Positions 4,389-60,927 are shown, numbered from the stretch's first letter. The stretch: DNA of 64,000 bases from Bacteroidales bacterium (GCA_017438975.1 JAFRUH010000019.1:12656-76655); one strand, 5' to 3'. The notes: a model not told the origin generated them from the sequence alone. Numbers and translations are program-made.

Positions 4389-4418
4389 CAGAGGCTGGCC
4401 CAAAAGGGTCAGCCTCTG
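4389..4418. terminator. Hairpin between convergent guaA and DUF1080 genes
   Basis: CAGAGGCTGGCCC-AAAA-GGGTCAGCCTCTG, 13-bp stem with one G-T pair, preceded by an A run (U tract on minus strand). Confidence 0.8.
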
Positions 4419-17897: not shown

Positions 17898-17933
17898 CTG
17901 TTATTGATATTATACTTACTTTCCTATAAAAAA

Positions 17934-17960
17934 TTGCGGTCCTTGCATTAAGGACCGCAA
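17934..17960 (-). terminator. Terminator downstream of gdh
   Basis: TTGCGGTCCTT-N5-AAGGACCGCAA perfect 11-bp stem followed by a T tract on the minus strand. Confidence 0.8.
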
Positions 17961-18004
17961 ATTTACTCAATAATTTGCAAATAGCAATTGAAATCCTCTA
18001 CAAA

Positions 18005-55154: not shown

Positions 55155-56278
55155 GATAATACAAACTCTATCAACTGCATAATCCTTTCAATAGAAAACT
55201 CTTTCCCCCTCTCTTCTGCTTTCTTCGAATAATACTCTAACTCATTCGAAGATAATAATTGCTTGATTCCTTCATACAATGCTTCTTCACTATTAGATGT
55301 TATAAGACCATATTGGCCGTCCTGTAATAACTCATTCATGCCGGAACAATTAGTCGTTATCACAGGAACTCCAAGAATTAGAGCTTCAGTCACAGCAGTA
55401 CTATATCCCTCACTTCTGGAGGAACAAATAAAAAGATCAGATACCTTAAGATATGGATAGGGATTAGGACAAAAGCCCATCAAACTGATATATTTTTGCA
55501 TGTTATTCTCCTCTATCATCCGATTTAGTTTTGAATGATCTGGACCTTCTCCTAAAATATTCAACACAAAATCATATCCCTCATCATGTAATCGTTTTAG
55601 TATTGGAATAAGTCGATCATATCCTTTTTGATGAACAAGCCTACCAATTGATATAAGATTGATATTACCTGTTAGAAAATGACTCCTCTCACAGTTCTTC
55701 CCACTTAGATTTAATATTTCGTCAGAATCAATCGGATTATATAAAACCCCAATGTTATCAAAACCCTTACAAAACTCACTCATTGAATCTTTAACAGATT
55801 TCGAAACACAAATAATTTTGTCGAATTTTTGATACGCCCTTATTTCTTCTTCGCGCGAATGGTAAACTAAATCTGTCCAATGGTTAATCATTAAATCAAT
55901 ATGGACCCATGCTATTTTTTTTGAATGGCGATTCGTGCTATGAGATAGCAATTTCGTAGAAAAACCTTCAATAAAAGCGACCTCAATATCATTCCGCTTT
56001 GGAACAAAAAGAAGGTATACCAGTTTCAATGGCAAAATATTATAAACCAGTTTATATTTAACCTTCCCAAACAGCGTATTCGTTTTATTAAGGATATATT
56101 TATAATTAACACAGGACTTTACCTCACATATATATTCTCCAGTATTTACAATACTACAGACTGTCACATTATATTTTTCCTGATTAATATTCCTCACTAA
56201 TGTTGTGAGTACTTTTTCTGCCCCACCTCCACTGAGTGATTCAATAATAAAAAGAACTTTCTTTTTGTTATAACTCAT
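55151..56278 (-). CDS. Glycosyltransferase family 4-like (paralogue of 54018-55154)
   Basis: GGGAEK, WVHID, GRLVHQKG, SSRSEG; start at MSYNKK. Confidence 0.9.
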   Translation of the reverse strand: MSYNKKKVLFIIESLSGGGAEKVLTTLVRNINQEKYNVTVCSIVNTGEYICEVKSCVNYKYILNKTNTLFGKVKYKLVYNILPLKLVYLLFVPKRNDIEVAFIEGFSTKLLSHSTNRHSKKIAWVHIDLMINHWTDLVYHSREEEIRAYQKFDKIICVSKSVKDSMSEFCKGFDNIGVLYNPIDSDEILNLSGKNCERSHFLTGNINLISIGRLVHQKGYDRLIPILKRLHDEGYDFVLNILGEGPDHSKLNRMIEENNMQKYISLMGFCPNPYPYLKVSDLFICSSRSEGYSTAVTEALILGVPVITTNCSGMNELLQDGQYGLITSNSEEALYEGIKQLLSSNELEYYSKKAEERGKEFSIERIMQLIEFVLS

Positions 56279-58655
56279 TGTCGAATTGATAAATAAATGT
56301 TCTATAATGCTCCTTAAAACTGGCCTTTTGTCCACACTTATTATCATGAAAATTCACTACCCGAGTTAAGTAATGAAACCCATAACGCTTTAAAACATCA
56401 TCATTGGAAGAGTGTCTCCAATCAGCAATACCAAAACCTGCCGTTTTGAAAGTATTACTAAGCACGTCACTATTTATATTATTGTAAATCACGACTCCAG
56501 CATCAGTCATATTGTCATAAAAAAACAACGTATAAACGCCAAAAAATAGCCGCCCTATTGATGTATTTGTTCGCGAAAAATGACAATGATTGATAACTAG
56601 GTCTTTAGCAAAACTATCTTCATAATTTATATGATAGTTCGTGGCTCCAACCATAAAAACAGGGATAACTGTACCACGATAGTTTTTCGAAATATTGCTT
56701 TTACTAAACGAACAATTCCTAATGGTATTATAATTACTGCCTCCGGAAATCCCTCCTCTATGATTATCATGAATTTGGCAATTCTCAATAATACAATGAC
56801 TAGATATCAGATCTGAAATAGTTGCACTATGCTGGATTCCCTCTTCTGGAACTACCTCATCGTACCACGACTGTATTTTAACGCCTGTTTCATTAGGCAA
56901 TAATGAGAAATAATCCAAATATGATGAATGAATGATTCTTAATGGTTGTTCTGTGGACTCTTTCTCATTAAAAGTCAGAATATCAATATTGTGGTAATTA
57001 TTGATAAGTCTCGTGTAACCAAGATTATTATTAATAGAAAACACTCTTTTTTCTGCAATTCTTTCAATAGTCTGGAGACCTTTTCTATAATGGTTTGTAA
57101 GTTTCAAATAATTGGAAATAGTACATCTCTCTTTATTCTCATTGTCTTTTACTATCTGACCTTCCTTTTCGACGAATTTTCCATATTGAGCTTTACCACT
57201 CCAGGTCATCACTGGTGTAGAATAGTTCGAGTCATAACTCCGATACCAATTCCCAAATTGAGAAACGGAGATTCCATCGGCCATAAAGCCGCTAAGATCA
57301 AGATGATGTATACGAATATTCTGACAATACGCAGACAAAGCAAACGCTCTGCTATTCTCAAGGTTCCTTTCTGCTCCTTCATCATAATCACGTAAAGCCC
57401 TATCACCGACCATCTTGGCATCATGAATCTGTAAATTTATGCAAGCAGCGATAAAGAAAAGCGTTCCGCCTTGAGCATAAGGCTTATCAAGATTGAGCGT
57501 ATAATACTTTGATTTCTTCTTACTATCTAAGATGAGATAATAAGTGGCGCCACCAAAATCAATATCGAATTTATCGAGGTCTTGAATCAGTACAATCGGC
57601 CCCTCCTGAGGTTTCTCATTTTTTGTCGTCCTCGGGGTGAAACAGTAGTCGTTCTTCGGAAATCTTATGCCGTCGTAGCCGTTGCGGTAGGCCCACTGGA
57701 TGGCTTCGGTGAAGCCGACGCCGTTCTGGTACATCAGGTCGTACTGGCGGTCGGTGTAGTGCCCGTCTGCACCCTTTTTCTGGTAGCCGGGAGTAATGCC
57801 AAACTTCTTCAGATCAACAACATAGACCTTCTTCGGAGCGGAGGTATCCCAGGGAAAGACCGGGTCTTCATGGACCCCCCAGAGATCGACGAGGGTCTCA
57901 TAATACTCGCCCGTGACCTTGACCTTGCTGATGCGCGTCTCTTTCGAAATTCCGTAGATCGGCGTCATCCGCGTCTGGCCCATCACGAGCGTCCCGTTCC
58001 GGAGCTCGCCGTTTTCGAGGTCCAGGACGGACCCGTACGGCATCGTGACGGCCTTGCCGGCAAGGTCGAAGGTGCCTTCGATGATGTACCTGCGGCACCG
58101 CTGATTCATCATCGCCTGGGTCAGGACCTTCCCGTTTCCGCCCTTCAGGACGACCCGCTCGAGTCCTGTGATATCCTTCGTCACCCCGAGGTCCGGACCG
58201 ACGCCCCTCGCAGAGGTCCGGGATACTCCGGTTGAGCTTTCTGAGCCCGGGACCGTTGTCCTGGGAGCCGGGACGGACATCCCGGAAGAATTCGCCGCCG
58301 CTCCCGAGGACCTCGTGGCAGTTCCCGCCGTTCCGGAGGTTGCAGCGCCTTGTGGGAGAGGCCTCGCAACTTTCCCGGAAGTGGTTCCCGTTCCGGAAGC
58401 CGTTCCCTTAGTGGAAGCCTTATTCATCGCCGACAGCTCCGCCAGGGATATCTCCTTCACCACCCCTGTCGAGTTCTGGTTCCCGGACTCGGCCCGGGGC
58501 TGGGTCTGCGCCTTTACCGTCTCCCCCGCCTCCTGCGCACTTCGCAGCGCCGCCCCCTGCCCGCAGGCGAGGACGAAAAGAGCCCCTGCGGCGCATACTG
58601 CGATGCGTCGTAGAAGAATGGATCCAACTTGAAAAATCAAAATGCTAAACCTCAA
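56268..58655 (-). CDS. Large probable lipoprotein with right-handed beta-helix (pectate-lyase-like) repeats
   Basis: VLAC lipobox-like site, S/T/G/A-rich linker, YDGIRFPKNDY, NLQIHD, FMADGI, IENCQIHDNHRGG. Start uncertain (TTG 58655 or 58640; no ATG). Confidence 0.7.
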   Translation of the reverse strand: MRFSILIFQVGSILLRRIAVCAAGALFVLACGQGAALRSAQEAGETVKAQTQPRAESGNQNSTGVVKEISLAELSAMNKASTKGTASGTGTTSGKVARPLPQGAATSGTAGTATRSSGAAANSSGMSVPAPRTTVPGSESSTGVSRTSARGVGPDLGVTKDITGLERVVLKGGNGKVLTQAMMNQRCRRYIIEGTFDLAGKAVTMPYGSVLDLENGELRNGTLVMGQTRMTPIYGISKETRISKVKVTGEYYETLVDLWGVHEDPVFPWDTSAPKKVYVVDLKKFGITPGYQKKGADGHYTDRQYDLMYQNGVGFTEAIQWAYRNGYDGIRFPKNDYCFTPRTTKNEKPQEGPIVLIQDLDKFDIDFGGATYYLILDSKKKSKYYTLNLDKPYAQGGTLFFIAACINLQIHDAKMVGDRALRDYDEGAERNLENSRAFALSAYCQNIRIHHLDLSGFMADGISVSQFGNWYRSYDSNYSTPVMTWSGKAQYGKFVEKEGQIVKDNENKERCTISNYLKLTNHYRKGLQTIERIAEKRVFSINNNLGYTRLINNYHNIDILTFNEKESTEQPLRIIHSSYLDYFSLLPNETGVKIQSWYDEVVPEEGIQHSATISDLISSHCIIENCQIHDNHRGGISGGSNYNTIRNCSFSKSNISKNYRGTVIPVFMVGATNYHINYEDSFAKDLVINHCHFSRTNTSIGRLFFGVYTLFFYDNMTDAGVVIYNNINSDVLSNTFKTAGFGIADWRHSSNDDVLKRYGFHYLTRVVNFHDNKCGQKASFKEHYRTFIYQFDNEL

Positions 58656-59127
58656 CGGCCTCGAGAAAATGCAATTCTCTCAGCGATGCTGTGCTATGGA
58701 AAGACAATTGGTCAAACAGCTTATATGCCTTCAACTGAATGATGGTCGCTTCCTCGGACAATTCTCCGTTCTCGTACATGTTGATGGTCAGATAGAGCCG
58801 GTCATTCGCGACCGGACCCATAACCAGGTTATAATCATGGTCCCGACGGAGTTTTCTGCATCCGACGATGAATTGAAGCCACTCCCGGTCCACTCCGTTG
58901 AACCGGCGAACTTTATATTTCGGGTTATCCAACAAGGACTCATCGAATTCAAAAACGGATACAACAGCCCGTTCCGACCCGCTTCGTTCTTTCCGGATAT
59001 GGGCCCATCGCTCGGCCTGTTCGAAACTGGTCGTAGCATAGAAACCCTTTCCGAAATCCGTGTTGGGACGTCCTCTTGAAATCAAGGGACGCCGAACTGC
59101 AACCGTGGAACCGTGATACAGTTTCAT
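58645..59127 (-). CDS. DUF3990 family protein (ADP-ribosyltransferase-like fold)
   Basis: LYHGS, DFGKGFY, A..WA, DLVMGPVANDR-like, QLSFHS. Confidence 0.82.
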   Translation of the reverse strand: MKLYHGSTVAVRRPLISRGRPNTDFGKGFYATTSFEQAERWAHIRKERSGSERAVVSVFEFDESLLDNPKYKVRRFNGVDREWLQFIVGCRKLRRDHDYNLVMGPVANDRLYLTINMYENGELSEEATIIQLKAYKLFDQLSFHSTASLRELHFLEAVEV

Positions 59128-59546
59128 CGCCTTTTCTCTATGAAATGGACGATATCCTGCAGGACGAAGTCAAGATCCTGCGTATGGAGGAAATCATAAT
59201 TATCGAGGACGAAATCATCTGCATGGTATCTTTCAAAAAGGGCCATTGCTTGCAAGGACGTCATTCCGACCTTCTCCGCATACCTTTCAAGGCAGAACAC
59301 ATAGAACTCGAATGCGGCGAATCCAACTACTCTGTCACTCTCCTTCCGCTTTTTTTCGAACTCCTCGTATAGCGATTCGGTATCGAGATACCACCATTTT
59401 GCTTTTTCGTTATACAGTTCTGCCGCCATAGGATTGATGTAGATATAAGTCAATGCCTCTTGCAGAGAAATGCGTTTTCTCTTCGAGATGAAAACAGCCA
59501 GGTGGGCTATCTTGATGGGAACGATGTTCTGCTCGATTTTGGCCAT
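59124..59546 (-). CDS. Tandem DUF3791-like protein
   Basis: C-terminal half FYVFCLERYA..G...MALFERY...YDFLHTQD..FV..DI is DUF3791-like; N-terminal half shows a similar helical pattern; 4-nt overlap with DUF3990. Confidence 0.72.
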   Translation of the reverse strand: MAKIEQNIVPIKIAHLAVFISKRKRISLQEALTYIYINPMAAELYNEKAKWWYLDTESLYEEFEKKRKESDRVVGFAAFEFYVFCLERYAEKVGMTSLQAMALFERYHADDFVLDNYDFLHTQDLDFVLQDIVHFIEKRR

Positions 59547-59549
59547 GAC

Positions 59550-59700
59550 ATGGATCTAAACAATTACTACTAAATCCATTCCTCGGCCCATTCAGCACAG
59601 ACCAAGGGAAGGACAGGCTACGACAGTTTATCTGTCTCGACGGGAATCCGCTATCCAGCGCACCCCCGGCAGCCCGGTAATGATCCTTCGCGCACGCGCG
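59550..59700 (-). ncRNA. Candidate structured 5' leader RNA (three-way junction plus two hairpins)
   Basis: Hand-folded stems GAAGGA/UCCUUC, CGGGCUGC/GUAGCCUG, CGGGGGU-CGCU/AGCG-AUUCCCG, GACAG/CUGUC, CCUUGGUCU/GGGCCGAGG, AUGGAUUUAG/UUAGAUCCAU. Confidence 0.6.
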
Positions 59701-59712
59701 ATGATTAACAAG

Positions 59713-59744
59713 CAAATATACAGTAAATATCTGGAATATTCAAA
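59713..59744 (-). promoter_or_regulatory. Canonical promoter heading the DUF3791-DUF3990-polysaccharide run
   Basis: TTTG (59741-59744), 20-nt spacer, TATATTTG (59713-59720). Confidence 0.8.
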
Positions 59745-59800
59745 TATCTTCCAACCAAAGCCCTTCCCGGTGAAGAAACCGCAGAAGGTAACTGTCACAT

Positions 59801-60886
59801 TTACGCGCGCCCGCCTGTGAGAACAGCAAGGGTTCTCGGGGTCCATTTCCGCATCAGCGAGTAGCAGGCGAGGATAGCCAGGACCGTTAGAAGGGGCGCA
59901 GCAAAGTACTTGAGAATCAGGGCAGCCTGCGAGGAAGAAGGGAATATCCGATTAAGATAAATGACGATACGGGGCAGCACAATCGTCGCATGCATCGCAA
60001 AGACCATAAAAACGCTGCCGGACAGCAGTTCCCGCTCCCGGATCCGGTTGCTTCTGATCAGATGGGCCGCCGTACCGACGACAGAGGGGCAGGCGAACAG
60101 GGCGAAGCAACGGTGCATGATCCCAAAAAGCCGGTAATCGTTACCGAAAGAGAGGACCATGACGACCCAAAAGGGTATGGACACCAGCGCAAGGGGGATT
60201 CTAACCTTCTCGAAGGATTCGGAAAAGTCCATCCTCCGGATCGTGAAAAGGGCCCCTGCCGCAAAGAACAACAGACCGGAAATCTCGAATCCCGGGACCT
60301 TGATCCACCAGTCCGGGACATAGAGCACGGTCAAAGCAAGCAGACCGACCACTCCCGATTTTCTGACGAGAAGAAAAATCAGAGGAGCAAAGATTGCCAG
60401 AAGCATCAGGTTCCGGATGAACCAGAGCGGAGCGTTGTGAGGCAGCCCAAGGCTTCCCGTACCCCAGAAAACACGCCAGCCGCCGATCCCCTGGAACCAG
60501 GCACCGATATCGGGAAACGCTCCCCAGAGAAGTGCCGCTCTGTTTTCGGAAAGGAACTGGACAAGGATTGACAGGATATTCCAGATCAGATAGGGAACGA
60601 GCAGAGTCCGCACCCGTTTCTTGAGTTTCCCGATCCATACGGAAGTATTCCATTCTTCAAGGCCCCTGAAGAAAAGAAAGCCTGAGATAAAAAAGAAAAT
60701 GGGCACTGCGACAACGCAGATACCTTCGGAGACTGAAATCCTGACGGTGTCGTAGAATCCGTTCTGCCAGACTACCCGTTCAAGCCCTTGGAGCGGCTTT
60801 CCGAATGCATGGACAAACACGACGAGAACCACGCAGAAAAAGCGCAGCCACTCGATGGTCCTGGACGAAACGGAACTGTCTTTCAT
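59801..60886 (-). CDS. Acyltransferase_3 family membrane O-acyltransferase
   Basis: IEWLRFFCVVLVVFVH, AVPIFFFISG, KRVRTLLVPYLIWN, LWFIRNL; start at MKDSSV since the longer TTG start overlaps the -7 element at 60911-60918. Confidence 0.88.
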   Translation of the reverse strand: MKDSSVSSRTIEWLRFFCVVLVVFVHAFGKPLQGLERVVWQNGFYDTVRISVSEGICVVAVPIFFFISGFLFFRGLEEWNTSVWIGKLKKRVRTLLVPYLIWNILSILVQFLSENRAALLWGAFPDIGAWFQGIGGWRVFWGTGSLGLPHNAPLWFIRNLMLLAIFAPLIFLLVRKSGVVGLLALTVLYVPDWWIKVPGFEISGLLFFAAGALFTIRRMDFSESFEKVRIPLALVSIPFWVVMVLSFGNDYRLFGIMHRCFALFACPSVVGTAAHLIRSNRIRERELLSGSVFMVFAMHATIVLPRIVIYLNRIFPSSSQAALILKYFAAPLLTVLAILACYSLMRKWTPRTLAVLTGGRA

Positions 60887-60927
60887 TTCCTTCAGCGATA
60901 CTCGTTCATACAAATATAGCTTCGATG

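Follow-up and report, generated by a model that had tools for sequence, protein, structure and literature searches.

On the minus strand of the 64,000-nt stretch of Bacteroidales DNA analysed here (the window), a promoter and a strongly folded leader RNA precede two adjacent genes that encode DUF3791 and DUF3990 proteins. Our preferred explanation, which we place just short of probable, is that this leader is a lineage-specific structural 5' untranslated region (UTR) that sets the mRNA stability or the translation of the DUF3791/DUF3990 cassette. The main value of the analysis is corrective. The leader is part of a small recombining cassette inside a glycan locus, and not of a polysaccharide operon. 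In addition, the two features that look most regulatory, an occluded start and a long bulged stem, are predicted for the window haplotype only, among the three haplotypes that were folded.

The first gene after the leader (59124-59546, minus strand) encodes a DUF3791 protein of 140 aa (Pfam PF12668, E 1.4e-14). The second (58645-59127, minus strand), which overlaps the first by 4 nt at the DUF3791 stop codon, encodes a DUF3990 protein of 160 aa (PF13151, E 2.3e-46). We take DUF3990 to be ART-like, and a study of ADP-ribosyltransferase-like families reportedly mentions it. PADLOC assigns DUF3791 to PDC-M13A/C and DUF3990 to PDC-M13B/A and PDC-M10A. With adjacent genes matching profiles PDLC04433 (E 1.7e-15) and PDLC04438 (E 8.7e-51), the pair matches the PADLOC candidate defence system PDC-M13 at the level of protein profiles. 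The AlphaFold model of the DUF3791 protein (pLDDT 73) is all-alpha, and neither a profile search of PDB sequences nor a Foldseek search with this model (best E 1.8) found a similar solved structure. Residues 8-67 and 79-139 each match PDC-M13 profiles of about 70-80 residues; the protein may have arisen by tandem duplication of a single small helical domain.

The cassette lies in a region of glycan synthesis. Upstream on the same strand are genes for a UDP-glucose dehydrogenase, a GH3 hydrolase and an acyltransferase (59801-60913). Downstream there is an ORF of 795 aa (56268-58655, minus strand) whose start overlaps the DUF3990 stop codon. Its product has a lipoprotein-type signal peptide (…GALFVLAC, followed by GQG), a long linker rich in Ser, Thr, Gly and Ala, and weak matches to parallel beta-helix proteins (NosD, TIGR03804). 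Gene callers disagree on the start and length of this lipoprotein gene in related contigs (670-791 aa). Further downstream are glycosyltransferases, an acetyltransferase-like hexapeptide protein, a pyruvyl transferase and others. The overlap of the next gene with DUF3990 makes it probable that the polysaccharide genes are co-transcribed with the cassette in the window.

By blastn, the leader was found only upstream of DUF3791 genes whose products are at least 87% identical. Eleven haplotypes from ruminant gut metagenomes are known, all with the leader directly upstream of such a gene, and the genes around it vary. A divergent HigB/HTH pair lies upstream of the cassette in L081. L108 and L116 lack the upstream acyltransferase, so that GH3 abuts the promoter. 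On the other side, L108 and L111 carry an AbiH gene and an acyltransferase between DUF3990 and the lipoprotein gene. Homology between contexts starts 10-35 nt upstream of the -33 box (window 59755-59778) and ends shortly after the DUF3990 stop codon (window 58550-58619). The L111 contig has another match to a 31-nt stretch, 58544-58574, at its distal end, past the insertion. In L094-L096 the downstream gene seemed to differ, but this was an artefact of gene calling: their DNA is 99.95% identical to the window. Since promoter, leader, DUF3791 and DUF3990 remain linked between differing neighbours, the leader is part of the two-gene cassette. A reading made earlier from the sequence alone had the leader control entry to the ART-like pair and to a polysaccharide operon; the assignment to the pair stands and that to the operon does not, given the changing flanks. 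We infer that the polysaccharide genes are replaceable neighbours of the leader and not its regulatory target. In a yak-rumen Bacteroidales MAG (L018:3451-4420), a DUF3791 gene with 64% identity begins 8 nt after a gene of the UpxY antiterminator family (NF033644, 104.5 bits). L018 has no similar leader, and the position of its cassette directly behind the UpxY-family gene, at the very head of a glycan locus, indicates a preference of such cassettes for this kind of site.

The promoter of the cassette is of the Bacteroidetes type, with a consensus of TTTG near -33 and TAnnTTTG near -7 (PMC7366714). Read from the sequence, the -33 element TTTG is at 59741-59744 (minus strand) and, after a spacer of 20 nt, the -7 element TATATTTG (TAnnTTTG) is at 59713-59720, together giving a sigma-ABfr promoter at 59744-59713. 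A generic sigma-70 scan also flagged 59743-59715. Both boxes are constant in the three upstream flank types, the spacer differing at 8 of its 20 positions, and the transcript is predicted to start at about 59704-59709. The leader is covered by contigs from RNA libraries (X30 at 59536-59687, as well as X31, X32, X33 and X43), as are both cassette genes, so the leader is present in RNA preparations. These data consist of low-depth assembled contigs only, without strand direction. They do not confirm the predicted start, and some cross the promoter: X32, X33 and X43 extend further upstream than that start, as far as about 59733, 59737 and 59810. The overrun (59708-59810) takes in the promoter and the last part of the acyltransferase gene, and may be due to read-through from the upstream gene or to DNA carry-over in the RNA preparations.

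The non-coding stretch of the minus strand measures 254 nt, from the end of the acyltransferase gene (59801) to the ATG at 59546. RNA from 59544-59707 has a minimum free energy of -68.0 kcal/mol (z -4.14), which none of 200 dinucleotide shuffles equalled; the complementary plus strand of the leader gives -42.9 kcal/mol (z -1.09). According to the sequence-only reading, the leader is extensively paired, specific to one strand and preceded by a canonical promoter, and these values agree with it, both in the comparison of the strands (z -4.14 on the minus, -1.09 on the plus) and in that with the dinucleotide-shuffled controls (z -4.14, 0 of 200). All the helices that it listed were recovered at their positions and make up the minimum-free-energy structure. 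It had counted some nine strand-specific G-U pairs; the pair table gives about ten, and it is because of these that the folding is asymmetric between strands.

The fold begins with an outer helix, GAAGGA/UCCUUC (59684-59689 with 59608-59613), which carries a 7-nt bulge and closes a structure spanning 59608-59689. Inside it is the core of a three-way junction (59614-59676, z -3.7 alone), formed in the minimum-free-energy structure by a junction stem (59669-59676 with 59614-59621), a long hairpin with an invariant GGAU loop (59641-59668) and a short hairpin as the third arm (59622-59636). Junction and outer helix together have a z of -4.8 on the minus strand and -1.8 on the plus strand. Next comes an 11-bp hairpin, CCUUGGUCUGU/AUGGGCCGAGG (59581-59607, -14.4 kcal/mol), with a z of -4.2 on the minus strand against +0.5 on the plus strand. 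The last element is a start-proximal hairpin of 10 bp (59550-59579, -7.8 kcal/mol, z -3.5), 3 nt from the AUG at 59546. The 11-bp hairpin is followed by AAUGGAUUUAG, with no U run, and a terminator scan of 59000-60200 found no terminator-like hairpin with a U run in 59547-59707. The leader thus does not have the G+C-rich hairpin and immediate U run of an intrinsic terminator or attenuator. A uORF of 7 codons (AUG GAU UUA GUA GUA AUU GUU UAG, 59555-59578, minus strand) lies inside the start-proximal hairpin and ends 8 nt ahead of the main AUG. It is intact in 10 of the 11 haplotypes, with non-synonymous changes, and in L097 it loses its stop codon to a 1-nt insertion. The uORF is probably a coincidence. 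A protein-coding role of the leader itself was ruled out, since haplotypes are separated by 1-nt indels within it and it is therefore not a reading frame.

The leader was also set against every 164-nt segment of the 64-kb window on either strand, with regression on G+C and G+U content. After this correction it lies at -2.95 sd and ranks about 26th of 6384, and roughly ten other places are as strong. The leader is among the most structured spots of the window, but not uniquely so. Two other highly structured sites, 17930-17964 and 4389-4418, are inverted repeats of 13-15 nt directly after genes and look like ordinary intrinsic terminators.

Helix probabilities were predicted for three haplotypes (the window, L081 and L097). 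The junction stem has probabilities of 0.96, 0.81 and 0.64 respectively, the long junction hairpin 0.98, 0.87 and 0.37, the short junction hairpin 1.0, 1.0 and 0.48, and the hairpin at 59581-59607 0.99, 0.82 and 0.86. The diverged haplotypes still fold well (z -3.50 for L081 and -2.53 for L097), with two junction arms rearranged in the predicted best fold of L097. The junction core (59614-59676) and the adjacent hairpin (59581-59607) are therefore predicted to be kept in the closest relatives. The peripheral helices behave differently. The outer helix falls from 0.79 in the window to 0 in both relatives, where its 5' strand pairs instead with the palindrome region at the 5' end; of the 14-bp bulged stem described earlier, the window has the whole and the relatives lose the outer 6 bp. 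The start-proximal hairpin, which had been said to bury the initiation region, has a probability of 0.95 in the window, but of 0.03 in L081, which has mismatches in it, and 0.01 in L097, which has a 1-nt insertion; that description fails for these two nearest diverged relatives. For the last 15 nt, the mean probability of being unpaired is 0.33 in the window, 0.62 in L081 and 0.54 in L097. The occluded start and the long bulged stem are thus predicted for the window haplotype alone, among the three folded.

Loops and junction strands vary more freely. One junction strand reads UCGA, UCAU or UUG, differing in sequence and in length, and a hairpin loop reads GCUGA, CGAAAA, GCAAA or GCUAA. The hairpin at 59581-59607 has a variable loop as well, and its variants change G-U pairs to A-U or G-C. 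Junction strands and most loops differ even among relatives that are at least 83% identical. The sole invariant loop is GGAU, which is the same, together with its stem, in all 11 haplotypes. The variable junction and loops argue against a conserved ligand pocket. Several haplotypes, among them L107, L108 and L114, are mosaics; in L107 the 5' half resembles L097, and the 3' half and the coding sequence resemble the window. Recombination therefore occurs inside the leader.

Several comparisons bear on selection for the fold, all of them resting on few, non-independent and recombining haplotypes. As a null model, the substitutions of each relative were redistributed at random over positions that carry the same base. 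Compared with this null, natural variants better preserve the energy of the reference fold (P 0.002 for L081, 0.025 for L097 and 0.03 for L107), and L097 breaks 3 pairs where 7.3 are expected (P 0.02). A hand tally over all haplotypes counted 18 transitions at paired positions, of which 15 leave a standard pair in place (about 60% would be expected to do so), and 7 transversions, each of which breaks one; in the core helices, 7 of about 16 substitution events break a pair. Divergence from L081 amounts to 25/167 positions in the leader, 28/108 four-fold degenerate sites of the two genes and 8/20 positions of the promoter spacer. The leader thus changes at about half the rate of four-fold sites (Fisher P 0.029, or 0.009 when the spacer is included). 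The sequence-only reading had looked to covariation in homologous leaders; no true compensatory double-sided changes were found, either in a four-sequence alignment or in hand-corrected comparisons, in which a 1-nt register error of the MAFFT alignment in the small hairpin was corrected. In the four-sequence alignment one pair had changed on both sides, by way of G-U, and the shuffle control equalled this. As only near relatives exist, and these have no compensatory double changes, such a test cannot be passed. Overall there is modest evidence from sequence variation that the stems are constrained, weakened by the non-independence of the haplotypes, and the indications of a regulatory RNA are weak.

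The distribution of the leader is narrow. A large protein collection contains 31 relatives of the DUF3791 protein, of which the closest are P0001 (94% identity) and P0002 (87%), followed by one at 69%. We collected 80 DUF3791 loci from species-representative genomes by protein alignment, together with 5 metagenome contigs, and also fetched the contigs of the closer DUF3791 proteins. No homologue of the leader was found by blastn at the more distant loci of this set (80 loci and 5 metagenome contigs). A covariance model of the core (the junction and the next hairpin), run on 661 kb made up of 84 other DUF3791 loci and the rest of the window, matched only the window itself. An exact-pattern scan with 23 nt of the core gave one match in metagenome contigs (L107) and none in viral contigs, and blastn with promoter and leader gave none in phage and plasmid collections. 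The DNA runs that hold the sequence are gut metagenomes and, where the host is named, it is bovine or sheep. In these searches, the leader was found in a single narrow clade of Bacteroidales from the ruminant gut only. For 30 other DUF3791 genes, the 164 nt upstream have a mean z of -0.53 (minimum -2.8). These other loci have no such leader and their upstream regions fold like shuffles, so a structured leader is not a property of the gene family, nor is the structure needed for the gene pair as such. Two other DUF3791 loci, L003:950-1103 and L006:3850-4000, share an almost identical upstream region of about 150 nt, one being binned as Lachnospiraceae and the other as Prevotellaceae. This likeness suggests either a second mobile cassette that carries a leader of its own or mistaken binning.

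Much of this distribution could also be expected if the structure were incidental, a young spacer that is rich in G+C and skewed in G and U, whose seeming conservation comes from recent, recombining relatives. We consider this unlikely, though it is the strongest of the rival explanations. It would account for a leader confined to one protein cluster at 90% identity plus one relative at 87%, for the lack of covariance-model matches in 661 kb of other DUF3791 loci, for the absence of compensatory changes and the loss of the peripheral helices in relatives, for the roughly ten other places of the window that fold as well after composition correction, and for the recombination inside the leader seen in the mosaics L107, L108 and L114. 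It is harder to reconcile with a substitution frequency about half that of four-fold sites and promoter spacer (P 0.009-0.03), or with natural variants that hold the folding energy better than random placement of the same changes. Also against it are three separate sub-structures with z of -3.5 to -4.8, two of which have plus strands at -1.8 and +0.5.

Distinctly less probable is an autoregulatory site, at which DUF3791, DUF3990 or a host factor would bind either DNA at the palindrome TCGCGCGTGCGCGA or the junction RNA, with feedback on expression as in toxin-antitoxin modules. The palindrome (6+6, 59688-59701, minus strand) lies where the transcript starts, at about +5 to +20, and could form a small 5' hairpin or, possibly, serve as an operator. 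Ten of the 11 haplotypes retain it, L081 having a single change, and its hairpin has a predicted probability of 0.74-0.98. By a rough estimate, not computed, it is not significant alone given the CG-rich stretch in which it lies, which speaks against this explanation. The two-gene layout resembling toxin-antitoxin or defence modules, with its PDC-M13 match, and the GGAU loop and stem invariant in all haplotypes are in its favour, but homologous cassettes elsewhere have unrelated upstream sequences, and the all-alpha DUF3791 model matched no solved DNA- or RNA-binding fold (best Foldseek E 1.8). A role of DUF3791 as a DNA-binding antitoxin on TCGCGCGTGCGCGA was considered and is unsupported, no significant PDB-profile or Foldseek match having been obtained.

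We regard as very improbable a related possibility, that the junction RNA is a dedicated RNA component of the ART-like cassette, be it a cis-encoded sensor, a decoy substrate or an antitoxin-like partner. With no direct repeats found within the leader, and no terminator, it does not have the features of a type III toxin-antitoxin RNA. If true, DUF3791 and DUF3990 would bind or modify the junction RNA, and the cassette would be an undescribed kind of protein-RNA defence or toxin module.

An antitermination or pausing leader of the UpxY/ops type, with the NusG paralogue encoded elsewhere and a pause after an RNA hairpin, is a shade more doubtful again. In opsX leaders, the best studied among those of Bacteroides glycan operons, a UpxY paralogue is recruited to polymerase paused at a YGCGNAGCR non-template hairpin. 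This site follows an RNA pause hairpin, the pause occurs 9-16 nt after it under the influence of the cognate UpxY, and upxY and upxZ head the operon (PMC11685472). The location of our leader within a glycan-synthesis region fits such a model, as do the capsular leaders of B. fragilis, which differ between loci and contain pause hairpins (PMC11685472), and the DUF3791 gene of L018 directly behind a UpxY-family gene. However, the first gene here is not upxY, and a tblastn search of the window with the NF033644 UpxY-family protein found no homologue (best E 0.84), as the sequence-only reading had supposed. The Class 1 motif YGCGNAGCR has nine matches in the window and none between 59547 and 59720, which is not decisive, because Class-2 sites lack the motif (PMC11685472). 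A repeat search found no inverted repeats flanking the promoter, and an invertible promoter was rejected. The leader, moreover, travels with the DUF3791/DUF3990 pair and not with glycan genes. Lacking upxY, YGCGNAGCR and a terminator-like hairpin with a U run, the leader gives no footing to the antitermination or pausing role once proposed for it.

No known RNA family was recognized in the leader, as had been claimed for it. Rfam 15 at gathering thresholds found three tRNAs only in the whole window, and a search of 59400-59900 at E up to 10 gave three matches at chance level, with E 4-5 and 14-18 bits where the cut-offs are 40-55; all of them lie on the plus strand and none on that of the leader. 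The leader is unclassified, yet on present evidence not an RNA of a new kind. Least probable of all is a ligand-sensing riboswitch or thermosensor controlling DUF3791 translation: three-way junctions are common among riboswitches and a weak hairpin covers positions -4 to -33 in the window haplotype, but Rfam has no match even at E up to 10, the junction strands (UCGA, UCAU, UUG) and the loops other than GGAU vary, stems without compensatory changes in a single clade, absent from all more distant DUF3791 loci, are not those of a generic riboswitch, there is neither a terminator-like expression platform nor a conserved start-sequestering hairpin of the kind used in translational occlusion or RNA thermometers, the start-proximal hairpin of the window being lost in relatives, and the temperature of the rumen is nearly constant.

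Under the preferred explanation, a lineage-specific structural 5' UTR, the leader would act through structure as such and not through a specific ligand pocket. As a constitutive 5' module it could protect the 5' end of the transcript, and it could set a low, insulated translation of a potentially toxic gene pair. Downstream genes co-transcribed from the cassette promoter, including the polysaccharide genes, would then probably be incidental passengers. Bacteroidales lack Shine-Dalgarno-guided initiation. If functional, the leader would be a structure that fixes the expression of a potentially toxic ART-like pair in bacteria of this kind, and an RNA element tied to the candidate defence system PDC-M13. 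Translation in Bacteroidetes is tuned by mRNA structure (PMC6847099). In B. thetaiotaomicron, 13.5% of UTRs exceed 100 nt, which places a leader of 160 nt in the tail of the distribution (PMC7366714); leaders of this length are uncommon in the phylum, but not rare.

Among known systems, the UpxY/opsX capsular leaders share with this one a position in a glycan region, a locus-specific sequence and stable RNA hairpins. They differ in their first genes, which here are DUF3791 and DUF3990 and not upxY and upxZ, and in having YGCGNAGCR and an invertible promoter, both absent from this leader, which is linked instead to DUF3791/DUF3990. The cassette resembles PDC-M13, both of its proteins matching PADLOC profiles of that system with E of 1.7e-15 and 8.7e-51. 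The definition of PDC-M13 uses proteins alone, with no RNA component described, and 30 other loci have no structured leader. The E. coli ompA leader is a 5' stem-loop that stabilizes its mRNA. The present leader is like it in having stable structures near the 5' end and stems more constrained than loops; its three-way junction and hairpin are more elaborate, and the RNase repertoire of Bacteroidales differs. Compared with the long 5' UTRs of Bacteroides (PMC7366714), our leader is unclassified, has an unusually strong z and was seen in uncultured rumen Bacteroidales only. It shares with them a sigma-ABfr promoter, a long non-coding leader without a Shine-Dalgarno sequence, and an expected dependence of expression on RNA structure near the start codon (PMC6847099).
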